From a virus (Duplodnaviria > Heunggongvirae > Uroviricota > Caudoviricetes): 10,013 bases of DNA. Below are positions 1 to 10,013 of this stretch, in pieces. How positions within the stretch are numbered: position 1 is the first letter of the stretch; the number at the start of each line of letters is the position of its first letter. The notes under the pieces are model-generated. The model had not been told where the DNA came from. It saw only the letters and a list, made by a program, of their open reading frames with translations, and ran no database searches. The position numbers and the translations under genes were made by a program. Location: IMG/VR virus record IMGVR_UViG_2740892372_000013, positions 1 to 10,013 of that record; one strand, given 5' to 3'.

Positions 1-85
1 GGTCTTTCCTCGTTACCAGTGCCGTCACTATGACGGTTAAACAGATGACGATCAGGGCGATTAGCATCGCCTTTTGCTGCTTCAT
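1..85 (-). CDS. hokD: Hok/Gef-family type I membrane toxin, 5' part only (first 28 codons; gene runs off the window start)
   Basis: Reverse complement of 1-85 translates from ATG (83-85) as MKQQKAMLIALIVICLTVIVTALVTRKD, the hydrophobic N-terminus typical of Hok/Gef peptides and matching my memory of HokD/RelF. AGGAG lies 9 nt upstream of the ATG. Paralog assignment is from memory; family assignment is firm. Confidence 0.7.
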   Translation of the reverse strand, partial: MKQQKAMLIALIVICLTVIVTALVTRKD

Positions 86-406
86 AGCCTGCTTCTCCTT
101 GCCTTTCGGCACGTAAGAGGCTAACCTACGTGTGTAGAGCATAGATATGGCCTCAGATTAATGTTAAGCGTCTTGCCGGACGCGTAATGTTAACTGGGGC
201 TTTTCTCTATCTGCCTTTTGGTGTTCATGCCTGAGACAGATAGCCTCAAGCACCCGCAGCAATTTTACTTAACTCCCCTTTTCCCACAAATCGTTTTTAT
301 CCCTATTGGTAATGTTCTCCCGATGTGGGATTCCCACATTGGAACGAATTCAATCAGTTAAAGACTCATCAGAATCTCACCTTTCTAAGTGCCCACAGGT
401 GAGGCA

Positions 407-435
407 TTGCAATAAAAATAGCAAACGTGTATAAA
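407..435 (+). promoter_or_regulatory. Candidate sigma70 promoter for the kinase/phosphatase operon
   Basis: TTGCAA (407-412), 17-nt spacer, TATAAA (430-435) preceded by TG. Predicted only by eye against the consensus. Confidence 0.25.
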
Positions 436-495
436 AGGAGGTAATGCATGTTTTTCCAGTCTTATCAATCCATTACTGAGAGTTAAGGGGGCGCC

Positions 496-1290
496 GTGGA
501 TCGGTGCGGTAATTATTTACTTAAAGATGGTCGCAGTTTAGGACAAGGGAGTTTTGGCGAAGTATTTAAGGTTGATGTCTATAACTTAACCCAGACCCAC
601 ATGACCACATATGCTCGCAAATACTTTTCACCTTGCCCGGACTTTGACAAGACCGCTATAAAAGAGTTGACTGATTTAAGACAGCGTTTTTTAGTTGAGA
701 TCAAAACACAATGCACTCTCAATAGAATAAACTATGATTCAATAGCGCCAATAGTTTTATTTAATACAAATGGTGATAAACCTTATTTTGTTATGGAATT
801 GGCAGAGTGTAACTTATATGAAGCCATCCGCAATGGTATGAACTACGCGGAGAGGAAGTCTGCTGTTACTCAGATTTTAAAAGGAATTATCACCATACAT
901 GAAAACAACTATATACATCGTGATTTAAAACCAGGAAACATACTTTATTATGCCGATGGAAAGTATAAAATATCTGATTTTGGTCTAGTAAAAGACAGAG
1001 ATACCTTACGGGCCGAAATCAAAACAAAATTTAAGCCTAATCACATGGGCACAGATGGATATCGAGCGCCCGAAATACATGATAGCGGTCTTTTTTCTTT
1101 TCAAAGTGACATATTTGCAGCAGGTAAAATTATCACTGATATATATCCCACAGAAAGAAGTGAAAAATTAAAAAGATTGATTGCAAAATGTTGCGCACAT
1201 TGGCCTGAAGAACGATATCAAAGCACACGGGAGTTACTGGAAGATTTTTTAAAAGTGACGGGGGAGGTAAATCATGAAGAACATAATTGA
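496..1290 (+). CDS. Eukaryotic-like (Hanks-type) Ser/Thr protein kinase, catalytic domain only, 264 aa
   Basis: GTG start with a GGGGG Shine-Dalgarno. Glycine loop LGQGSFGEV (res 15-23), beta3 lysine in YARK (K42), catalytic loop HRDLKPGN (141-148), DFG (161-163), and activation-loop GTDGYRAPE (APE 191-193). The gene is AT-rich relative to the flanking DNA. Confidence 0.85.
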   Translation: MDRCGNYLLKDGRSLGQGSFGEVFKVDVYNLTQTHMTTYARKYFSPCPDFDKTAIKELTDLRQRFLVEIKTQCTLNRINYDSIAPIVLFNTNGDKPYFVMELAECNLYEAIRNGMNYAERKSAVTQILKGIITIHENNYIHRDLKPGNILYYADGKYKISDFGLVKDRDTLRAEIKTKFKPNHMGTDGYRAPEIHDSGLFSFQSDIFAAGKIITDIYPTERSEKLKRLIAKCCAHWPEERYQSTRELLEDFLKVTGEVNHEEHN

Positions 1291-1990
1291 AATGGCATGT
1301 TTTAGCCTAAAACAACCCCAAAAAAAAGAAAATGAAGACTTTTATTTACCGCCATCTTTTGATAGCGATTTTAACATTGTCTTTGCAGTAGCTGATGGGG
1401 TTGGTTCCTCTGAACATTCAATGCTTGCATCTCATGCAGCCATTCGTGGCATTAGACACACGCTAGGCACTTCCTTTTTCTCAATTGAAAGTGCATTTCA
1501 TTCAGCTAAAAAAGAAATTGACAATTTAGATATTAGCACTGCCACAACCTTAACAATTGTTCAGATCAAAAAAAATGAAGTGTTAATTGGTCATTCCGGT
1601 GATTGCCGAGTATACTTCAATAAAAACAATAAACTAAATCAGTTAACCACTGATCAAACGAGATATCAAGAACTCCTTGATTCTGGTGAACATAAATTAC
1701 GTAATTTAAGAAATCATAAAGAACGGCTATCTTCAGTCCTAACGAATGCTTTATCAAATACAACGGATTTGAATTTTGAGTTAATGTCTTTTCCGATTAG
1801 CCAGCTAATTTATAATGGCTATCTTCAACTCTATGCAATGACTGATGGTGCCTATAAGCATTGGGATGTCAGACCAAGGTTTTCTGAGAAGACAATGCTC
1901 TCACCAACAGCTTTTGCGAGTAGTTTAAGAAAAAGGATTGAGAAAAACATAATGGATGATTACACCTTTATAGGCGTAAAAGTAACCTAA
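1274..1990 (+). CDS. PP2C-family (PPM) Ser/Thr protein phosphatase, 238 aa
   Basis: ATG preceded by GGGGAGGT at 5-nt spacing; overlaps the kinase 3' end by 17 nt. Motifs FAVADGVGS (D41-G44, PP2C motif 1), GHSGDCRVY (GDSR-like, D110), LTTDQT and YAMTDGAYK (D191-G192), in the same order as bacterial PP2C such as PrpC/Stp1. Confidence 0.8.
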   Translation: MKNIIEMACFSLKQPQKKENEDFYLPPSFDSDFNIVFAVADGVGSSEHSMLASHAAIRGIRHTLGTSFFSIESAFHSAKKEIDNLDISTATTLTIVQIKKNEVLIGHSGDCRVYFNKNNKLNQLTTDQTRYQELLDSGEHKLRNLRNHKERLSSVLTNALSNTTDLNFELMSFPISQLIYNGYLQLYAMTDGAYKHWDVRPRFSEKTMLSPTAFASSLRKRIEKNIMDDYTFIGVKVT

Positions 1991-2143
1991 TTTTAGATAT
2001 CCAAGATATTTACTCTAATTTAACCATAGTATTCCCAACCTCTTTTTATTGGGGGTTGGGTTCATTAAAGTCACCATTTTCTATTTCTTTCCCGTTAGAG
2101 GATATATTATTTCCAGATAAAGAAAGCAACTTCTTATGCAACT

Positions 2144-2248
2144 TCATATCACGCCATGCTTCCACCGCGGTAACTCTACATAGTCCATTAACAGTTCATG
2201 CCATTCTTCAAAATTGGCGTTATATTTAGTTGAAGCAAAATCAGCCAT
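2144..2248 (-). pseudogene. Truncated and diverged copy of the 58-aa small ORF (34 codons)
   Basis: MADFASTKYNANFEEWHELLMDYVELPRWKHGVI. The first ~26 codons align with copy B (3570-3746), then homology is lost at the junction with the AT-rich island. Confidence 0.3.
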
Positions 2249-2249
2249 T

Positions 2250-2423
2250 TTATTCTTCCTCTTCGTCTTTTATTTCGTGATATGAGTAATTGCAGTAGTT
2301 AAAGAAAATATCTTTTGCTTCGTCATGTATTTCATCAGGCGTCGCATCATCATCCACTTCGAATTCATCCTCGAAATCTCCACCGGCTATTCCCGTTTCA
2401 ATAATTATTTTGAACTTTCGCAT
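2250..2423 (-). CDS. Small highly acidic protein, copy A (57 aa)
   Basis: MRKFKIIIETGIAGGDFEDEFEVDDDATPDEIHDEAKDIFFNYCNYSYHEIKDEEEE. Differences from copy B are two synonymous changes plus a stop in place of Gln58. Confidence 0.5.
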   Translation of the reverse strand: MRKFKIIIETGIAGGDFEDEFEVDDDATPDEIHDEAKDIFFNYCNYSYHEIKDEEEE

Positions 2424-2470
2424 TTAACTACCGCCCTGCCGGACAGCCTCCTGATGTTCTGAGGGCGCCT

Positions 2471-2480
2471 CCCCCCCCCC
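2471..2480. repeat. Homopolymeric C10 tract (G10 on the coding strand) between ORF118A and acidic ORF A
   Basis: Ten consecutive C; the paralogous position in copy B (3969-3977) has nine. Confidence 0.9.
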
Positions 2481-2519
2481 TCCGGTTAAGGATTAAATTT
2501 TTAACAGAGCTAAATTTAA

Positions 2520-2876
2520 TTATTCAGTTCTGGATTTTGTCGCCCTGCGTATCCGCGCTTTCGCGTTACGCTCAATCTGAATTAGCTTTTCTATATTTTT
2601 TCGCCTTTCCCGCTCCTCCTGACGCAAGAGCCTTACATCATCTGCCAGTCTGGTTTCTCTTTTCGCCACAGAGAGCATCCAGTCAAATGGCTCCACAACT
2701 GCACCGCAGATTTTACAGCGGACCTGACGCTCTTTTTCGTCAACCCGGACAGAGGCGTGATGGCAATATGGTCTTTCCGATGGCTCATAGAGAAAATTAA
2801 CCTGATTACGTGGGTCATCCTCTTTTACCGGAAATAAAACGATATTGCTTAACTCATCTTCTGGTTTTATTTCCAT
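2520..2876 (-). CDS. Hypothetical prophage protein with Cys/His zinc-ribbon-like motif and basic coiled-coil tail, copy A (118 aa)
   Basis: GGAGAGGAG immediately 5' of the ATG. Motif C-H-H...C-x2-C (PYCHHASVRVDEKERQVRCKICG) and an Arg/Lys/Glu-rich C-terminus. Protein is identical to copy B; all 3 nucleotide differences are synonymous third-position changes. Confidence 0.7.
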   Translation of the reverse strand: MEIKPEDELSNIVLFPVKEDDPRNQVNFLYEPSERPYCHHASVRVDEKERQVRCKICGAVVEPFDWMLSVAKRETRLADDVRLLRQEERERRKNIEKLIQIERNAKARIRRATKSRTE

Positions 2877-3573
2877 GCTCCTCTCCTTTGATGCGAATGC
2901 CAGCGGCGCGGATTGCAGCGATGACTTCAGAAACTTTGTATGCCATTACCGTTTGGTAATCATCGTGAAAATCTGTTCGATGAAGCATGCTGCTACGTTC
3001 TGGGAGCGATATTTCCCGTGCTTCCAGTTCTGCAATGCGCTTCTCTGCGGATTCCAACGCCGCAACCAATTCGTCTACAGTTCCGGCAGCTTGCAGTGCG
3101 TAATCGGTAATAGCCATCTCATGATCAATTTCAGTACCGTTCTCATTCGTTGAGGTGATAGCAAAATAATCAGAGTCGATTTCGTTATCAGCTAAGTGGC
3201 GTAGCGTATCGGCAACAAGCCGGCCGTTTTCGATTAGCAGCTTCCCTTCCGTAAGCGCAATCTCCTCGTTCTCCTGGTCGCGTGATTTGATGTATTGCTG
3301 GTTTCTTTCCCGTTCATCCAGTAGTGCCAGCGCAACATTTGGATTAAAGGCAGCAATAAATTCAGCGTTTGCGTAAGCCTGAGCATCTGTTTCAACCAGG
3401 CAGTTAACATGACATTCTGCAATTACGCCACCGGGCTCTCCTTTCCATTTTTGACAAACAAAAACTCCTGTTATATTCCCATGCTGATTGCCCGATGTAT
3501 GCCCTACGATGTAGCATCCTTTAGTTGCTTTCTCTGCTGCTTCACGCAGCGCCTGATAGTCAATCTCGCTCAT
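2854..3573 (-). CDS. Ead/Ea22-like prophage protein (239 aa)
   Basis: N-terminus MSEIDYQALREAAEKAT and the segment DAQAYANAEFIAAFNPNVALALLDE resemble the conserved N-terminal region of Ead/Ea22-like lambdoid proteins (from memory). Central coiled-coil ELVAALESAEKRIAELEAR. Its ATG overlaps the stop of the upstream small ORF (ATGA). Confidence 0.6.
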   Translation of the reverse strand: MSEIDYQALREAAEKATKGCYIVGHTSGNQHGNITGVFVCQKWKGEPGGVIAECHVNCLVETDAQAYANAEFIAAFNPNVALALLDERERNQQYIKSRDQENEEIALTEGKLLIENGRLVADTLRHLADNEIDSDYFAITSTNENGTEIDHEMAITDYALQAAGTVDELVAALESAEKRIAELEAREISLPERSSMLHRTDFHDDYQTVMAYKVSEVIAAIRAAGIRIKGEEHGNKTRR

Positions 3574-3746
3574 TCATCGCCCCACTCATCACAATATGCT
3601 TCGACCGGATTTTTTCCTGCTTCATAATCATCACGCCATGCTTCAGCATCAGCAGCACTGCCACCACGTAACTCTGCATATTCCATTAACAGTTCATGCC
3701 ATTCTTCAAAACTGACGCTGTATTTAGTTGAACCAAAATCAGCCAT
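3570..3746 (-). CDS. Small acidic hypothetical protein (58 aa)
   Basis: MADFGSTKYSVSFEEWHELLMEYAELRGGSAADAEAWRDDYEAGKNPVEAYCDEWGDE. Start overlaps the end of acidic ORF B by 8 nt; stop overlaps the Ead-like ATG. Not in the ORF track (under 60 aa). Confidence 0.4.
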   Translation of the reverse strand: MADFGSTKYSVSFEEWHELLMEYAELRGGSAADAEAWRDDYEAGKNPVEAYCDEWGDE

Positions 3747-3921
3747 TTTGTTCTTCCTCTTCGTCTTTTATTTCGTGATATGAATAATTGCAGTAGTTAA
3801 AGAAAATATCTTTTGCTTCGTCATGTATTTCATCAGGCGTCGCATCATCATCCACTTCGAATTCATCCTCGAAATCTCCACCGGCTATTCCCGTTTCAAT
3901 AATTATTTTAAACTTTCGCAT
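3739..3921 (-). CDS. Small highly acidic protein, copy B (60 aa)
   Basis: ORF track entry; roughly 40 percent Asp/Glu. Conserved with copy A through synonymous-only changes except the C-terminal stop/Gln difference. Confidence 0.55.
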   Translation of the reverse strand: MRKFKIIIETGIAGGDFEDEFEVDDDATPDEIHDEAKDIFFNYCNYSYHEIKDEEEEQNG

Positions 3922-3968
3922 TTAACTACCGCCCTGCCGGACAGCCTCCTGATGTTCTGAGGGCGCCT

Positions 3969-3977
3969 CCCCCCCCC
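3969..3977. repeat. Homopolymeric C9 tract, paralogue of the C10 tract
   Basis: Nine consecutive C at the position equivalent to 2471-2480. Confidence 0.9.
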
Positions 3978-4016
3978 TCCGGTTAAGGATTAAATTTTTA
4001 ACAGAGCTAAATTTAA

Positions 4017-4373
4017 TTATTCAGTTCTGGATTTTGTCGCCCTGCGTATCCGCGCTTTCGCGTTACGCTCAATCTGAATTAGCTTTTCTATATTTTTTCG
4101 CCTTTCCCGCTCCTCCTGACGCAAGAGCCTTACATCATCTGCCAGTCTGGTTTCTCTTTTCGCCACAGAGAGCATCCAGTCAAATGGCTCCACAACTGCA
4201 CCGCAGATTTTACAGCGGACCTGACGCTCTTTTTCGTCAACCCGGACAGAGGCGTGATGGCAATATGGTCTTTCCGATGGCTCATAAAGAAAATTAACCT
4301 GATTACGTGGGTCATCCTCTTTTACCGGAAATAAAACAATATTACTTAACTCATCTTCTGGTTTTATTTCCAT
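4017..4373 (-). CDS. Hypothetical zinc-ribbon-like basic protein, copy B (118 aa; ORF track extends it to a GTG at 4430)
   Basis: Same protein as copy A. The ATG at 4373 has GGAGAGG directly upstream and is the start shared with copy A, so the 19-codon upstream extension is probably not translated. Confidence 0.7.
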   Translation of the reverse strand: MEIKPEDELSNIVLFPVKEDDPRNQVNFLYEPSERPYCHHASVRVDEKERQVRCKICGAVVEPFDWMLSVAKRETRLADDVRLLRQEERERRKNIEKLIQIERNAKARIRRATKSRTE

Positions 4374-4445
4374 GCACCTCTCCTTTGATGCGAATGCCAG
4401 CGGCAATTGAAGCCTGATAGCTAATTTCACTCACAGCACCACCTC

Positions 4446-4826
4446 CTAAAAATTCCCCTGACAGAACGCCAGTACACGCTGCATAACTTCGCTATTTCGG
4501 CACTCACTGCAAATTATGTTCTGATGCCTGTCATAGCGGCGTATTTCTCCGTCTGGTAACTTTCGAATCAATGTCTGGTCGGTTGTTTTCTCCGCTGCCT
4601 TACGCCATACGCGATACACCTGTTCTGATGCAAAAACACCGTATTTACCGGGCATGTATAAATCGCCACAAGCCAGTACATCCACAAGGCAACGTCTGAC
4701 TGAATGCCAGCCTGCTCCCGTCGCTCTCTCCAGTTGTGATATCGTCATGCGTTCATTTTTGCGTACCAGCCCGATAATTCGGGCCTTCAGTTCTTCACGC
4801 TGTTCGTGTGTAAAAGGTTTCGCCAT
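4446..4826 (-). CDS. Hypothetical prophage protein, possible winged-helix fold (126 aa from ATG; track lists a TTG start at 4841)
   Basis: ATG at 4826 preceded by GGAGG at 5-nt spacing. The stop of the upstream gene (4842-4844) lies in this ribosome-binding region, suggesting coupling. Confidence 0.6.
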   Translation of the reverse strand: MAKPFTHEQREELKARIIGLVRKNERMTISQLERATGAGWHSVRRCLVDVLACGDLYMPGKYGVFASEQVYRVWRKAAEKTTDQTLIRKLPDGEIRRYDRHQNIICSECRNSEVMQRVLAFCQGNF

Positions 4827-4841
4827 AAGCGCCTCCGGCAA

Positions 4842-5612
4842 TCACTTTTCCGACACAATACGACCGGATGAATCGACAATCTGCCGAACAATATCCCGGT
4901 GCTTGTTCAGCTCCCGCAGCGCGGCGCAGACACGCTCCCACTTCTGAACCTGACCTTTTGCCCGGCGCAGCTCGCGGTTAGCCACATGCAGCGATGGTAA
5001 AATCAGACCATCCGGATGTTTTCTGGTGAACAACGGCTGTGACTGCACTGTGACCGCCACACTTTCAGTTTTTATTTCTTCCTGTGTTGCGGCTTCCCGG
5101 ACTGGTAACGCAGCACCTGCTGGCTGAGGAAAGGCCTTACCATCATTTTCCGTTACCAGCGCGGCTTTCGGCTCTGCTGGTAAATTATCGCCCGGCATGC
5201 AGTAACGAAATCTACCGTTCTGATTAACGCGTGCCAGCCGCCCCGTTGCGGTTACCACCGCCAGCGTGGAAGCAACCTTGCGAGTACTGACACCGAACTT
5301 ACCCGCTATTTCTTCACAGGTTTTAGCCCCCTCCTGAGCGATAAACTCAATCATCATGTTAGCGCTAACTTTTGGAGCGACCTCTTCGGTCAGCATATCC
5401 TGTGTTTCAGATTTTACTGGCCGCTCTTCGGTTACCCGGGATTCACCTTCGACAGCCAGAAACCAGGTGTGACCCGTTTTATCAACAACGCCATTTTTTT
5501 TGAGCTCCCACAGTTCGTTGAGAACTTCTTCACGGCTGATATCAATTCGTGCCGCCAGTTCAACAGAATTGGCTTTACCCATCGCTTTCAGTGCATGCAA
5601 TACGGTTTCCAT
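4842..5612 (-). CDS. Hypothetical prophage protein with two predicted helix-turn-helix / winged-helix segments (256 aa)
   Basis: GGAGGA upstream of the ATG. Segments NSVELAARIDISREEVLNELWELKKNGVV and KTCEEIAGKFGVSTRKVASTLAVVTATG look like DNA-binding HTH. No family recognised with confidence. Confidence 0.65.
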   Translation of the reverse strand: METVLHALKAMGKANSVELAARIDISREEVLNELWELKKNGVVDKTGHTWFLAVEGESRVTEERPVKSETQDMLTEEVAPKVSANMMIEFIAQEGAKTCEEIAGKFGVSTRKVASTLAVVTATGRLARVNQNGRFRYCMPGDNLPAEPKAALVTENDGKAFPQPAGAALPVREAATQEEIKTESVAVTVQSQPLFTRKHPDGLILPSLHVANRELRRAKGQVQKWERVCAALRELNKHRDIVRQIVDSSGRIVSEK

Positions 5613-5645
5613 TAAAACTTCCTCCGGATAAAAATACTTCTCAAA

Positions 5646-6308
5646 TCAGACAAAACCAGCCGCTTTCCGGCGTTCATACTCCTGTTTCAGCAACTCAATT
5701 GGCGTTGGTCCCAACGGGCGTTTTGGTGCCGCCAGTTGTCGCCGTACTGGCGGAACGCTCATCCCGTTACCAACATGCTTTGCCCATTTCGTCAGTTGCC
5801 GTTCCGCAAGTCGTTTTAACTCGCCCTGCGTCATCTGGCGCTCAATCCCTCTGGTACGCATTTCGAGGCAGATGTGGTACAGCACAGGCTGTGGCCACGG
5901 GTATTTATCACTCCCGTCGTATCGCCAAGATTCATTGCGCCAGCGCCGATACTCTTCCATCACGGCATCCACCGTAAGACCAAATGGATTTGCCCCACTC
6001 TCCGAAATCAGCGCAACAAACTCAGCCAGGTCCGGGGGCCACGTTTCACCCGCCCGGCAGCGGTCCATGCACTGACGGCACACCAGACGGATTTGCTGTT
6101 CAGTCATCGCACCAATCTGGGCAATCCAGAGCTTCGAAGGTGCGGCCCCGTTCTTCTGAGTCCAGCGGTTCGAATACACCTCCCCCATGAGCTCCCACAG
6201 CTTCCAGGCCGTTTCCGTTGCTGATAAATCCGTTGTCACGTTCCCACTGTTCGCGTGCAGCCCGGATTTCCTGAACTGCCCGTGATGCCGTGCCACCTGA
6301 TGCTGCAT
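5646..6308 (-). CDS. Lambda P-like replication protein (helicase loader); start codon uncertain
   Basis: By-eye alignment to lambda P: WPPDLAEFVALISE versus FLPSPGQFVAWCRE, DKYPWPQPVLYHICLEM versus ESYPWKSNAHYWLVTNL, and the GELKRLAERQ...PPVRRQLA tail. The track start at 6308 has a GGGGGAAG ribosome-binding site but overlaps the O-like gene by 209 nt; in-frame ATGs at 6188 and 6107 are alternatives. Confidence 0.7.
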   Translation of the reverse strand: MQHQVARHHGQFRKSGLHANSGNVTTDLSATETAWKLWELMGEVYSNRWTQKNGAAPSKLWIAQIGAMTEQQIRLVCRQCMDRCRAGETWPPDLAEFVALISESGANPFGLTVDAVMEEYRRWRNESWRYDGSDKYPWPQPVLYHICLEMRTRGIERQMTQGELKRLAERQLTKWAKHVGNGMSVPPVRRQLAAPKRPLGPTPIELLKQEYERRKAAGFV

Positions 6309-7137
6309 GGCTTCCCCCCTTGCTGACTGGTTTTACCTGTGCCCTGACGTGCTGCACGTGGCGGGCAAATTTCTGCTCCCACTGAACCTGCGTGAAAACC
6401 TTCCCCTCCGCCATCCAGTAATCCCGGAATGCGGCAAGCTCAGCAGGTGTAAATTCCGGCTCAGGCAGAGCCATACCCCACACTGCTGCCCGTTGTCGAA
6501 AATCCGGCGACGGCTGCCAGACAGTAGTCATCGAAAATTTCCCGATCGGTTCGCTCAGGCCGTCCAGGTATTCAGGTTCGGCTGTCTGCAACGGCGCACC
6601 ATTCGACTCACTGGTCGGAATACTCTCGCGCGCGTTATGTGTGGGGTTTAATTCTGTATCTGTATCTGTATCTTTATCTGTCGTGACTTGTCGTGACAGA
6701 TGCGTGACACGTCGTGACTCATCGTGACAATCAGCATTATGTTTCCGCAGCTTTTCCCGCTCCCGCTGCGCTCTCTTGCGCTCTGCCGGGGATTTTGCCG
6801 TTTGCGAAACGTTACCATTGTCCTCTTTCAGCACCTGACGTTTTTCCCATCCGGAAATAAGGTCACCATCCAGAACCCGCCCCTGCATTGCATGCAAAAT
6901 TGAATCAATTACGTCTTCCGTCACATCAAGCGCACTTGCTAAATCTTCCGTCGTGACATCAATGTGACCACGTAGTGACACGCCGTGACATGTCGTGACA
7001 TTTCGTGACGCGCTCACCAGAAGATGGATATACACTGCCATCACTGTTGCGATTGGCTGTCCTGATACCCTGGCAATCGTTCGCCACTTGGGGTCATTTG
7101 GCATGTCATGCCACAATCTGAGCCAGGCATTAGCCAT
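6100..7137 (-). CDS. Replication initiator (O-like) protein, about 345 aa (track lists a GTG at 7143)
   Basis: Sits immediately upstream of the P-like gene. Has a low-complexity acidic linker (TDKDTDTDTE...) and two internal arrays of iteron-like repeats in its 5' half, as for ori inside lambda O. ATG at 7137 preceded by AGAGGTGA. Confidence 0.6.
   Translation of the reverse strand: MANAWLRLWHDMPNDPKWRTIARVSGQPIATVMAVYIHLLVSASRNVTTCHGVSLRGHIDVTTEDLASALDVTEDVIDSILHAMQGRVLDGDLISGWEKRQVLKEDNGNVSQTAKSPAERKRAQREREKLRKHNADCHDESRRVTHLSRQVTTDKDTDTDTELNPTHNARESIPTSESNGAPLQTAEPEYLDGLSEPIGKFSMTTVWQPSPDFRQRAAVWGMALPEPEFTPAELAAFRDYWMAEGKVFTQVQWEQKFARHVQHVRAQVKPVSKGGSHAASGGTASRAVQEIRAAREQWERDNGFISNGNGLEAVGAHGGGVFEPLDSEERGRTFEALDCPDWCDD
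6651..6728. repeat. Iteron-like array 1: three TCTGTA hexamers followed by five (T/G)CGTGAC heptamers at 10-11 bp spacing
   Basis: CGTGAC at 6682, 6692, 6703, 6713 and 6723. TCTGTA at 6653, 6659 and 6665. Confidence 0.8.
6951..7009. repeat. Iteron-like array 2: six GTGAC-core repeats at 10-11 bp spacing
   Basis: GTGAC cores at 6953, 6964, 6975, 6985, 6995 and 7005, all on the same strand. Confidence 0.8.
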
Positions 7138-7205
7138 ACTCACCTCTTCTGATACCGAACTTTACCCACGAACTTCCGAAAGAAATCCGGTATAAATATT
7201 GTTGG

Positions 7206-7631
7206 TCAATGCACAACAACTGCATTACCAGGCTGACCACCACTGTTAGTCAGGGTGCCCCAGGCGATCGCTACAGCGACAAAATCATCCACATCTTTCA
7301 CCAGCCGATCCCGTCGTTCGACGATCTCCCGGTAATATTCAGAACTGTGACTGCGCATACGGGCCACCAGCAAAGGCGGCATCGCCTTTTCGATCGCCGG
7401 TAACAGCGCCTGAATTTTTTCAACCGCATCAGGCGTATCCTTCTCCACCCAGCGGAAAATTTTCTGGGTATTACGGGCCAGGGCTTCCGGATGGCTGTCG
7501 TCGTACAGTTCCGGGAACGTCATCCCAAGTTCGAAATAAGTCCGGGCTATTTCAGCTGCAGGCACTTTCTCACCATCAGGATATGCCCAGGCATTCATCG
7601 CCATGCGGATGTGTTCATGTTTGATTTTCAT
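7206..7631 (-). CDS. YdaT-family prophage regulator (CII-position protein), 141 aa
   Basis: Starts MKIKHEHI and ends VVVH, as I recall for YdaT-family proteins. Lies directly downstream of the cro-like gene with an ATGA start/stop overlap, as in the ydaS-ydaT arrangement. Confidence 0.55.
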   Translation of the reverse strand: MKIKHEHIRMAMNAWAYPDGEKVPAAEIARTYFELGMTFPELYDDSHPEALARNTQKIFRWVEKDTPDAVEKIQALLPAIEKAMPPLLVARMRSHSSEYYREIVERRDRLVKDVDDFVAVAIAWGTLTNSGGQPGNAVVVH

Positions 7632-7855
7632 GAATCATTTTTCCTTTCGTTCGAGGTGTTATCCTTCTTTTTGTAAAGTTCTGGGTTCAACGATAATTTT
7701 CCCTTGGAGTATGCAACTGCTTCAGCAGCCCTCCCCTTGGGAACTATTTCGCCGGGACGCTTACGCCACATGTATATAGCTTCTCGGGTTACCCCATAAA
7801 AATCAGCGACTCTTTGGACAGAACCAAAAAACTGGACAAGTTCATCAACTCGCAT
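7628..7855 (-). CDS. Cro/DicC-like small HTH repressor (75 aa)
   Basis: Divergent from the cI-like gene. Motif FFGSVQRVADFYGVTREAIYMWRK is typical of Cro/YdaS/DicC HTH proteins. AGGAGA ribosome-binding site. Confidence 0.7.
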   Translation of the reverse strand: MRVDELVQFFGSVQRVADFYGVTREAIYMWRKRPGEIVPKGRAAEAVAYSKGKLSLNPELYKKKDNTSNERKNDS

Positions 7856-7954
7856 TTCGCTCTCCTTAAAACTAAGTATTTTTAGATTAAAGGGTAATTT
7901 TTTTTAGGTCAATACAATCTAAAATAATTTATATTCAATTCGCGGGAGAAAATA
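7856..7954. promoter_or_regulatory. Divergent promoter/operator region (OR-like) between the cro-like and cI-like genes
   Basis: TTGACC on the minus strand (7907-7912). 17-mer AAATAATTTATATTCAA (7922-7938) overlaps a TATATT -10 for cI (7930-7935). Inverted repeat TTTTAGATT (7880-7888) / AATCTAAAA (7916-7924). Confidence 0.5.
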
Positions 7955-8599
7955 ATGGAAAGCCTTGGCATTAGGCTTAAGAAACTCAGAAAAGACAAAG
8001 GTCTGACCCAAGTTGAACTTGGCAAGCTTTCTGGCGTAACTGGGGTAACAATAGGATACTGGGAGAAAGATCTAAACGAACCAGGTAGCAAAGCTCTTAG
8101 TAAATTAGCCCTAGCACTAGGCACTACTGAGTCCTATCTCCTGTATGGAGTATCATCACCTGAATCATCCCTTGTGCAGAAAAATCCAGGTACCCAAATC
8201 CCATACCTTTCTTGGGGAGAAGCGATTTCTTTCCTAATATTAAAAGGAGAGAAAACTATGGGAAATGTCGACAGGATCACCACATTCTTTGATGTCAAGG
8301 AGGGAGATTTTGCCGTTTCAATGCCTGATGATACTATGCACAATCCATCAGGGTCCCCAAGCATTCCAGTTGGAGCCACAGTGATCATGAGGCCTGGCGA
8401 AAAATATAAAAATGGTAGCATCGTCGCAGTAATAGTCCCAGATCCACTCACAAACGAACCATCCATGACTATAAAAAAATTAGTTATTGATGGAAAGCTC
8501 GTGTACTTAGCCCCCCTTAACCCACGCTATCAATCATCCTTACTTACACCGGAATGTAACATCGTTGCTGTAGCAAAAGGTGTTCAGTTCAGCCTCTAG
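7955..8599 (+). CDS. CI-like phage repressor (N-terminal XRE HTH plus C-terminal S24 LexA-type autopeptidase domain), 214 aa
   Basis: HTH LTQVELGKLSGVTGVTIGYWEK. S24 signature Ser in FAVSMPDD and Lys in TIKKLVIDG. Divergent to the cro-like gene. Confidence 0.85.
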   Translation: MESLGIRLKKLRKDKGLTQVELGKLSGVTGVTIGYWEKDLNEPGSKALSKLALALGTTESYLLYGVSSPESSLVQKNPGTQIPYLSWGEAISFLILKGEKTMGNVDRITTFFDVKEGDFAVSMPDDTMHNPSGSPSIPVGATVIMRPGEKYKNGSIVAVIVPDPLTNEPSMTIKKLVIDGKLVYLAPLNPRYQSSLLTPECNIVAVAKGVQFSL

Positions 8600-8650
8600 C
8601 TCCCGCTTTGCCCTGTAATCAGAGGTCGGCTTTGTCGGCCTTTTATCTTA

Positions 8651-8699
8651 AAAATATTTATATTCAACTTGACAGCAAAACTAAATATTCTTATATTCA
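8651..8699 (+). promoter_or_regulatory. PL-like early promoter with two flanking operator-like repeats
   Basis: TTGACA (8669-8674), 17-nt spacer, TATATT (8692-8697). AAAATATTTATATTCAA (8651-8667) and AAATATTCTTATATTCA (8683-8699) closely match the 17-mer at 7922-7938. Confidence 0.5.
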
Positions 8700-8872
8700 T
8701 TGCAACCCACCCCGCTTCACAGAATGCAGGGCAATACTTCGAGTTACCCGGCAGTGGTCAGGGGTTAAGTAGCCAGCCCGAGGCGTATGAACATGACGGC
8801 GGGAACACTTTGTATAACAGCGCAGCAGGTTTTTAGTTCCGCGACCCGGCGTTAAGGGGGAATGAGGTCAAC

Positions 8873-9025
8873 ATGGATACGCTCAATCTTGGCAACAACG
8901 AATCTCTGGTATGCGGCGTGTTTCCCAACCAGGACGGTACGTTCACCGCGATGACGTATACCAAAAGCAAAACGTTTAAAACTGAAGCTGGCGCGCGTCG
9001 CTGGTTAGCCAGAAACACTGACTGA
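8873..9025 (+). CDS. Small hypothetical early protein (50 aa)
   Basis: MDTLNLGNNESLVCGVFPNQDGTFTAMTYTKSKTFKTEAGARRWLARNTD. GAGGT ribosome-binding site 4 nt before the ATG; TGATG stop/start overlap with the next gene. Reminiscent of small YdfA/YdaF-type prophage proteins, from memory only. Confidence 0.45.
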   Translation: MDTLNLGNNESLVCGVFPNQDGTFTAMTYTKSKTFKTEAGARRWLARNTD

Positions 9026-9675
9026 TGAGGTTGACGATGGAATTTAAAGATTTACCTCCTTCAATCCAGGAGATTGCAGCACACACACTTCGTCATCGTC
9101 TGAACGAACTTGAATTGGAATCGGTAACGAAAAAAGACACTGATAATATGGCTCGTAATGTGCGCGATGCGTTTACCGGATTGTATTTCTGTGCGTCTAT
9201 AAATAAACACGACTCAGAGAGTATGGCAAATAAAATTGCAGAAACGACAGCGCAAAACATCAATACGAAACCAACGGAAGAAGAAATTGATCAGTTTGCT
9301 CATGATGCTGGTTTAAAAAACAAGAAAGAAAAATCGCCATATGCGGGGAACATGTTTGTTTATGACAATCTCATCAGAATTCGTGGCGAAATTCCGGCGG
9401 AATACCTGGCAAGAGTCCATCAGGCATTGCTTAAAAATTTGGAAACAGAATTATTTGATGGCAACACTAACGGTTTCTTCATGGTATCAGGCCTTGAGAA
9501 AGACTGGGATGCAGAAAAACGCTGGAATGTTGCTACATGGTTATTCAGTAACAGAGCCGCTGCACTGGAAGCTTCGGCATGTATTTGCGGCCTGTTCTTA
9601 ACAGACCACAAATATAATCTGGATGTGTACAGTTATATTTACGCTGAACACGGTCCACTCTGGATTGACTGGTAA
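9025..9675 (+). CDS. Hypothetical early-left operon protein (216 aa; the ATG at 9037 with GAGG upstream may be the true start)
   Basis: Long ORF, translationally coupled to the preceding small ORF. No recognisable motifs. Confidence 0.55.
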   Translation: MRLTMEFKDLPPSIQEIAAHTLRHRLNELELESVTKKDTDNMARNVRDAFTGLYFCASINKHDSESMANKIAETTAQNINTKPTEEEIDQFAHDAGLKNKKEKSPYAGNMFVYDNLIRIRGEIPAEYLARVHQALLKNLETELFDGNTNGFFMVSGLEKDWDAEKRWNVATWLFSNRAAALEASACICGLFLTDHKYNLDVYSYIYAEHGPLWIDW

Positions 9676-9885
9676 TTATAAGGAAACACCAGCAGGGCCG
9701 CGGCGACCAACAGAACGATTAAAATCAATAATGCCATTATAAAGGACATTATTTAATTTATCGTCGAATGCTGATTCTGTGAGCCTCAACTCTGAATGAG
9801 TTTTTAATAACCCTGATTGCCTGAGTTGATTTACCAGGCATTCAATCTGTTTTTCAATAAGCGGATTTCTTTTTTTGTTTGGCAT
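9676..9885 (-). CDS. Hypothetical small protein (69 aa from the ATG at 9885; track lists 73 aa from 9897)
   Basis: GGAGGA directly upstream of the ATG at 9885. Convergent with the 216-aa gene, with abutting stop codons (TAATTA). Confidence 0.45.
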   Translation of the reverse strand: MPNKKRNPLIEKQIECLVNQLRQSGLLKTHSELRLTESAFDDKLNNVLYNGIIDFNRSVGRRGPAGVSL

Positions 9886-10013
9886 TTTATCCTCCATTGA
9901 GGTTCTGGGTTAAAAATGGAGACCAACACGCTGTCACGTGTGGTCGTGCGCCGGACACGGATAAGAATCCGGTACTGACAGTTTACTGAAAGGATATTTC
10001 CCTGAAAAGTCAG

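Follow-up and report, generated by a model that had tools for sequence, protein, structure and literature searches.

Mosaic joining of gene cassettes by homologous recombination is a well-known kind of event in the lambdoid prophages of enterohaemorrhagic and Shiga-toxin-producing Escherichia coli (EHEC and STEC). The genome of O157 Sakai contains many near-identical lambdoid prophages, recombination between prophages takes place in EHEC genomes, and lambdoid mosaicism was reportedly studied by Hendrix, Juhala and Clark on HK97, HK022 and HK620. A second known process is the deletion mediated by direct repeats and the formation of gene "accordions", as in the amplification of K3L in poxviruses. 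Here, we analysed a stretch of 10,013 nt (positions 1 to 10,013 of the IMG/VR record IMGVR_UViG_2740892372_000013, hereafter the window), which is the early-right arm of a Rac/DicB-type lambdoid prophage of STEC and which contains a string of four small cassettes, i.e. an Ea22-like gene, a gene encoding a 118-aa protein, a DUF7167 gene and a short open reading frame (ORF3), twice in tandem. The tandem cassettes were probably generated by the mosaic join of two allelic strings through homologous recombination between related prophages, followed by conversion and deletion.

The string resembles the exo-xis region of lambda and Stx phages, in which a gene of the Ead/Ea22 family (PF13935) is likewise flanked by small ORFs (PMC7093339, PMC10834534, PMC8614690). 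A prolysogenic role was described for Ea22 of the exo-xis region of lambda and Stx phages (PMC7093339, PMC10834534), and the structure of the C-terminal domain of lambda Ea22, which distinguishes this protein from its homologs in Stx phages, was solved (PMC10834534). Unlike the exo-xis region, the string of the window is located in the rightward operon after the replication genes; the Ea22-like gene lies on the cro/O/P strand and not between exo and xis, and a prolysogenic function of its product can only be inferred by analogy. The Stx2a phage ArgO145 (L017, 3132-5780), which is inducible, has a string with the order Ea22-118-hyp70-DUF7167-ORF3-Ea22 in its early-left region. Since the string of the window is part of the rightward operon, the string therefore appears to move between operons as a block. 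We know of no description of the specific arrangement present in the window; it appears to be undescribed but unremarkable, and nothing in the cassette repeat challenges the current understanding.

Organisation of the tandem cassette strings

A repeat search revealed direct repeats of 300 nt with 100% and 97% identity and a spacing of 1497/1498 bp. The sequence-only reading of the window, which was made without database searches, had described a duplicated two-gene module of ~770 bp with block A at 2140-2907 and block B at 3625-4404, and exact alignment confirmed that the two blocks are near-identical. The well-conserved part (2250-2907, 658 nt, versus 3748-4404, 657 nt) contains seven substitutions (positions in copy A/copy B: 2252/3750, 2286/3784, 2412/3910, 2790/4287, 2841/4338, 2847/4344 and 2879/4376) and one homopolymer length difference, C10 at 2471-2480 in copy A versus C9 at 3969-3977 in copy B. 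The copies are adjacent, have the same orientation and are 98.8% identical, a similarity that is far above chance. While the repeat is real, it comprises parts of four genes and not of two: the full unit is a string of four cassettes with a period of 1498 bp, present twice in tandem, and the "two-gene module" is its well-preserved middle.

All cassettes are encoded on the minus strand. The upstream unit (copy B) starts with a relic of an Ea22 gene (4351-4434) and continues with copy B of the 118-aa gene (4017-4373), a non-coding spacer with a C9 run, which is G9 on the coding strand (3922-4016), copy B of the DUF7167 gene, encoding 60 aa (3739-3921), and an intact ORF3 that encodes an acidic protein of 58 aa (3570-3746; phrog_519). 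The downstream unit (copy A) has a full Ea22-like gene of 239 aa (2854-3573), which constitutes the unique segment between the near-identical blocks, followed by copy A of the 118-aa gene (2520-2876), a second non-coding spacer with the C10 run (2424-2519), copy A of the DUF7167 gene, encoding 57 aa and ending with a TAA stop codon (2250-2423), and a frameshifted and truncated ORF3 remnant, in which 34 codons are followed by a stop codon (2144-2248). The homology of the remnant to ORF3 ends near 2140, where a kinase/phosphatase module joins.

The Ea22 relic was recognised by translation, by alignment to both ends of the full Ea22-like gene and by a further weak repeat, 3551-3572 versus 4412-4433, which corresponds to the Ea22 start region. 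It is in-frame and comprises 27 codons (VSEISYQASIAAGIRIKGEVHGNKTRR followed by a stop codon), in which the beginning of the full gene (8 codons) is fused to its end (~18 codons). Its Shine-Dalgarno sequence, GTG start codon and reading frame are preserved, as is the overlap of 23 nt with the 118-aa gene. All single-copy relatives examined have an identical relic, which may have been kept as a micropeptide or because it couples translation.

The cassettes are densely packed. DUF7167 and ORF3 overlap by 8 nt, ORF3 and Ea22 by 4 nt, and Ea22 and the 118-aa gene by 23 nt, the last overlap being found for the full Ea22-like gene as well as for the relic. The only spacer in the string, with 95-96 nt, lies between the 118-aa and the DUF7167 genes. 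Its position is occupied by a 70-aa gene (phrog_4659) with the same short flanking sequences in phage ArgO145 and in the L001-type prophages described below, and the spacer is, by this comparison, a cassette junction. The G-run of the spacer is located ~45 nt upstream of the DUF7167 start. In 14 spacers from 11 loci its length ranges between 8 and 11, and even the two copies of one genome differ in it; this may reflect a hypervariable tract or a hotspot of sequencing errors. Folding of the poly-G spacer RNA revealed no special structure (z=-0.34), the repeat had no match in an Rfam scan of the whole window, and a promoter and terminator scan of 1900-4900 gave counts not above the shuffled expectation.

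Probable allelic origin of the two copies

The closest complete genomes are those of E. coli O145:H28 RM12581 and RM13514. Outside of the repeat, these differ from the window by one single-nucleotide polymorphism (position 9223) in ~8.5 kb, and they are 1499 bp shorter. They contain a single unit with the order DUF977-relic-118-spacer-DUF7167-ORF3 stub-PP2C-kinase, hereafter called S-type, and single-copy S-type loci are also present in O157:H7, O103:H2, O45:H2, O121 and other strains. The L001-type loci (FDAARGOS_293, RM9872, FWSEC0002) are similar to the window in that Ea22-118 is present twice around DUF7167-ORF3, and their Ea22, ORF3 and DUF7167 alleles are 100% identical to those of the window. 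They differ in that the repeated pair consists of the 118-aa and the 70-aa gene (its repeated copies being ~95.5% identical), in that DUF7167 is present in a single copy and in that there is no kinase/PP2C neighbour.

The variable parts of the repeat could be assigned to these two types. The segment 2930-3740 (Ea22 and ORF3) is 100.0% identical to the L001-type in three complete genomes (O157 FDAARGOS_293, O145:NM FWSEC0002 and O157:H7 146N4), and copy B of DUF7167 and ORF3 are 100% identical to L001-type alleles, whereas copy B of the 118-aa gene is the S-type allele. Copy A of DUF7167 is the widespread 57-aa S-type allele, for which 4952 blocks were indexed in the assembly collection; for the exact Ea22 allele, the index had ~400 blocks. 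Copy A of the 118-aa gene is, according to the table of variable sites, a mosaic: sites 30, 36 and 87 in the 5' part of the gene have the states of the L001-downstream copy and sites 247-335 in the 3' part those of the S-type.

Furthermore, both halves of the arrangement exist on their own. The half DUF977-118-spacer-DUF7167-ORF3-Ea22 was found alone in the complete genomes L003 and L019, and the half Ea22-118-spacer-DUF7167-kinase alone in L021. Homology between L021 and the window ends at 2910, where the repeat ends as well. More than 25 different cassette orders were present among 108 surveyed loci. As in lambdoid mosaicism in general, identity changes sharply at cassette boundaries (2907-2910, the spacer and the Ea22 ends), and alleles with 100% identity are shared between otherwise different prophages with many cassette orders; the difference is that the exchange here leads to a tandem of the same cassettes, which mimics a duplication. 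The closest relative switches abruptly at these boundaries and the parental arrangements are found separately, as expected for mosaic exchange. Judged from their distribution, the copies are different pre-existing alleles and not young in-situ duplicates.

This bears on the model implicit in the sequence-only reading, in which the copies diverged in place. According to that model, a tandem duplication arose in situ by unequal crossing-over or replication slippage, the copies diverged under purifying selection and the core was later converted. Adjacent copies in the same orientation with 98.8% identity and silent-only differences are what such an event would leave behind, and a conversion-like identical core does exist. 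However, the variable parts of each copy have identical counterparts in other prophages, where these alleles circulate separately, and are not closest to those of the partner copy; the copies are mutually closest only in a core of 377 bp and not along their whole length. In addition, the copies differ from each other by ~0.08 per neutral site, yet the unique segment between them has 100% identity to another prophage type. Divergence in place would hardly give this pattern, and we consider an in-situ duplication unlikely.

The core (2413-2789, corresponding to 3911-4286) is identical between the copies, apart from the C10/C9 difference. It contains 96 nt of non-coding spacer and ~61 synonymous sites without a single substitution; there were 0 substitutions over ~149 neutral sites, for which a pooled neutral divergence of 0.08 would predict ~12 (P ~7e-6), and a largest-gap permutation test gave P=0.02. 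The core is probably an exchange or gene-conversion tract. A recombination boundary inside the repeat had been proposed before, with the more diverged left ~100 bp as its sign. Indeed, that region (2140-2248 versus 3625-3746) has 7 substitutions in 89 aligned nt and indels of +1, -17 and -4 nt, as had been noted; however, six of the seven changes in the ORF3 stub are replacements and the indels break the frame, which is the signature of a pseudogene. The stub has diverged by 0.079 per site, about as much as its intact neighbours have at synonymous sites (DUF7167, 0.07; the 5' end of the 118-aa gene, higher). Because relaxed constraint on the truncated ORF3 explains its divergence, no boundary is needed at the left end; the recombination signal is that of the 377-bp core.

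The following sequence of events is proposed as the probable one. One parent would have been an S-type variant with one unit beside the kinase/PP2C genes, as in RM12581, and the other an L001-type variant with Ea22-118 twice around DUF7167-ORF3. Homologous recombination between these two variants of one prophage family would have brought the two alleles into tandem, with Ea22 reduced to the 27-codon relic in the first unit and ORF3 truncated at the kinase/PP2C join in the second; the substitution-free core would be the tract of exchange or gene conversion. From the comparison of assemblies, the resulting direct repeats of 660 bp would then recombine with each other, leading to patchy conversion between the copies and to deletion to a single unit. 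A common origin of the parents is indicated by O145 RM9872, in which an L001-type variant is found where RM12581 has its S-type variant, i.e. in the same chromosomal neighbourhood, and by left-arm proteins which are identical by accession in both strains (DicB, DUF1482, the DUF1391-adjacent WP_000394548.1 and WP_001133037.1); therefore, the two parents would be variants of one resident prophage family.

The window appears to illustrate, in a clean and well-resolved form, how the shuffling of cassettes among lambdoid prophages that co-circulate in STEC can mimic a gene duplication. The repeats that arise from shuffling would then drive deletion and conversion, which bears on prophage typing and on the short-read assembly of STEC genomes.

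Duplicated and single-copy forms in other assemblies

The same duplication was found in two further, independent draft assemblies, GCA_000250155.2 (99.94% identity over window positions 1-8575) and GCA_011860825.1 (99.86% over 1-4402). To the right of 4402, the backbone of the latter is a different one, in which a 153-aa Ea22, DUF4406 and a diverged DUF977 are encoded. The marker sites inside the repeat differ among the three duplicated assemblies: copy A of L007 has the B state at 2412, and copy B of L016 has the A states at 3910, 4338, 4344 and 4376. Such a pattern would result from an exchange between real copies.

The repeat had been predicted to be a substrate for deletion of the intervening Ea22-like gene, and RM12581 and RM13514 are indeed the same prophage minus exactly one 1.5-kb unit. 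The joint between A and B states varies in single-copy genomes; it lies between 2252 and 2286 in RM12581 and inside the core in YB14-1 and Balcarce, consistent with independent deletions, and the single-copy relatives look like deletion products of the duplicated form. In this respect the locus is similar to gene accordions, which also have a tandem unit with long direct repeats and single-copy derivatives with different crossover points; it differs from them in that there is no evidence of a copy number above 2 or of dosage selection and in that the copies have different ancestry. The single copy of RM12581 was also considered as a collapsed assembly; this was judged unlikely, as that genome is without the entire Ea22-ORF3 segment. 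In RM12581 (L004, 3750-3908), a 1-nt deletion is located within DUF7167 exactly at an A/B polymorphic site (window position 2412) and reduces the annotated protein to 52 aa; the deletion is probably a homopolymer sequencing error in the reference genome.

Several observations weigh against a mosaic join with subsequent deletion. Not one of 5,426 complete RefSeq E. coli genomes had the exact duplication, and all three instances come from draft assemblies or from assemblies of unknown technology. The joint of RM12581 depends on two marker sites, one of which is the 1-nt deletion and possibly a sequencing error. As to the order of events, insertion into an S-type prophage and deletion from a duplicated ancestor both fit. 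Finally, the junction of the L-type DUF7167 5' end with the S-type spacer shares only ~24 nt in the window; because this is short for a RecA-type exchange, an unsampled variant may have been the true parent.

An assembly artefact was also considered, i.e. a short-read contig that was threaded through the shared cassettes of an S-type and an L001-type prophage in one genome. The flanks and the middle are each ~100% identical to two known prophage types, the identical core of 377 bp is longer than typical k-mers and the arrangement is in no complete genome, all of which would fit a chimeric contig. Yet, three assemblies carry the arrangement, one of them on a different backbone, and their marker sites inside the repeat differ. 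The absence of the entire Ea22-ORF3 segment from RM12581 argues that single and double forms are real alternatives. Moreover, the position of the spacer is filled by the 70-aa gene in the L001-type and a chimeric path must, therefore, switch within ~24 nt at the boundary of DUF7167 copy B and the spacer. Because of this narrow interval, an artefact is regarded as quite improbable.

The double arrangement was absent from 80 IMG/VR loci that encode the 118-aa protein, and in a phage genome collection no phage covered at least 80% of 2000-4900, the cassette string being found in Stx2a phages. The duplicated form is rare (3 of ~108 sampled loci) and single-copy forms dominate. This argues against a selected gene amplification, in which a doubled dose of the 118-aa/DUF7167 pair would benefit the phage or the lysogen: both copies of both genes are intact and their proteins are identical or near-identical, and repeated Ea22-118 cassettes are common in related prophages, but at this low frequency, and with no instance among the complete genomes, such selection is very improbable.

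A mosaic join of two allelic strings is, hence, the reading that we prefer. A more far-reaching model, in which the locus is a dynamic array of cassettes that gains and loses copies by recombination while conversion homogenises them, in which Ea22 and the 118-aa protein are partners and in which extra copies are transiently selected to tune an early interaction of phage and host, such as the lysogeny decision or counter-defence, seems very improbable to us. A partnership of Ea22 and the 118-aa protein is suggested by the conserved 23-nt overlap of their genes and by natural in-frame Ea22::118 fusions. Such fusions occur in P0002, P0004 and P0043, in E. marmotae and E. coli. In these proteins, the Ea22 N-terminus or coiled coil is joined to the 118-aa protein at '...AELEAREI|KPEDE...'; the join corresponds to window positions ~2870 and ~3010, and a short GGAAATA microhomology was apparently used. 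The fusions are a weak Rosetta-stone hint of joint action.

Selection on the 118-aa and DUF7167 genes

The copies of the 118-aa ORF (2520-2876 and 4017-4373) differ at three positions, all of which are synonymous third positions, and encode identical proteins. The acidic ORF, i.e. the DUF7167 gene (2250-2423, 57 aa, and 3739-3921, 60 aa), has two synonymous third-position changes and, as the third difference, TAA versus CAA, i.e. stop versus Gln. Both counts agree with those given in the sequence-only reading. The five silent changes are all C<->T transitions on the coding strand. Codon comparison showed that the substitutions are not randomly distributed over codon positions; the probability that five of five are synonymous is 3.4e-4 when all substitution types are considered and 3.5e-3 when transitions alone are. 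Read in the listed antisense ORFs, these changes alter the amino acid, as had been stated (R->K in 2537-2800, E->K in 2325-2462). In one plus-strand frame with shared wobble positions the changes are also silent, but stop codons close that frame.

Purifying selection on both genes, which had been deduced from these few differences, was corroborated by family comparisons. Copy A of the 118-aa gene and the L001 upstream allele differ by 14 synonymous and one nonsynonymous changes (Sd=14, Nd=1, pS 0.18, pN 0.004), and the ratio of nonsynonymous to synonymous rates (dN/dS) in the family is about 0.02-0.1. By this evolutionary signature, the 118-aa ORF and DUF7167 are real genes under purifying selection, and these two unannotated small ORFs would be reasonable targets for functional work on early genes. 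Since the variable parts of the copies are alleles that circulate separately in other prophages, the silent differences record old selection in the phage gene pool.

The Gln/stop difference was also considered as a sign of decay of copy A, an interpretation that was rejected. The 57-aa allele is widespread, and other prophages have it in front of an intact ORF3 and Ea22; because of this, the difference is a common natural polymorphism, in which 57 aa with a 1-nt gap alternate with 60 aa and an 8-nt overlap.

Properties of the cassette proteins

The 118-aa protein is a member of phrog_1621 (E=1.8e-56, residues 1-117). The family is distributed across Enterobacterales (Klebsiella, Kluyvera, Serratia, Erwinia, Yersinia and Salmonella) with 45-73% identity, and C38, H40, C54 and C57 are invariant in 39 homologues. 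The C-terminal segment, LR.EE..RR.NIEKLIQIERNAKARIR, is almost invariant. The C-terminal helix (residues 84-110) is near-invariant from Escherichia to Yersinia, Serratia and Erwinia, the N-terminus varies freely, and this conservation suggests a conserved host or nucleic-acid target. An AlphaFold2 model, with a mean predicted local distance difference test (pLDDT) score of 73, has a disordered N-terminus, a zinc-ribbon-like knuckle formed by a beta-hairpin and a helix of 55 residues with pLDDT >90. The protein matched Zn_Ribbon_TF (PF08271, TFIIB-type) with 21.6 bits, which is under the cutoff of 29, and a Foldseek search of the model against the PDB gave no match at E<=0.001, the best being the ribbon of the TFIIB N-terminal domain with E=0.14. 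The 118-aa protein is likely, but not established, to be a zinc ribbon.

The DUF7167 protein (57/60 aa) matched PF23768 with 55.1 bits (cutoff 24.4) and phrog_1997 with E=9e-31; its RefSeq orthologues are annotated as DUF7167, and it is largely confined to Escherichia. The 239-aa Ea22-like protein matched PF13935 over residues 2-114 with 117.6 bits (cutoff 27, E=8e-34). Sequence searches of the PDB revealed no significant match for the 118-aa protein, DUF7167 and the Ea22-like protein, the last having no match at E<=0.1 although the PDB holds the C-terminal domain of lambda Ea22. The 118-aa, DUF7167, ORF3 and Ea22 proteins had no PADLOC match at E<=0.01, and the module proteins had no match in NCBIfam. 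From their position and their relatives, the cassette proteins are inferred to be early accessory proteins of the exo-xis/Ea22 kind that are expressed upon induction.

Gene context of the window

The genes of the early-right arm are arranged in the order cI-like repressor, cro, YdaT, DnaT-like O, P, DUF1627 and DUF977. A LexA/cI-like repressor is encoded on the plus strand (7955-8599), and cro (7628-7855), YdaT (7206-7631), the DnaT-like replication protein O (6100-7143), DUF1627 (4842-5612) and DUF977 (4446-4841) are encoded on the minus strand; the replication protein P lies between the DnaT-like gene and DUF1627 in the gene order. The small accessory cassettes follow downstream of the replication genes. 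The prophage also has exonuclease/recombination genes of its own.

On its other side, the repeat adjoins a convergent pair of genes (496-1990) encoding a Ser/Thr protein kinase of 264 aa and a PP2C phosphatase of 238 aa, with a low GC content of 0.33-0.38. The kinase matched the PADLOC models mad6, PD-T4-6 and Stk2 (E 1e-38 to 1e-25), and the pair looks like a putative prophage-borne kinase defence or a moron with its own phosphatase. The only match of the whole-window Rfam scan was a full-length sok antitoxin RNA at 80-255 on the minus strand (RF01794, 117 bits). A hok/hokD gene is annotated in relatives just to the left of the sok position and, by these annotations, sok/hok is a type I toxin-antitoxin system beside the kinase module.

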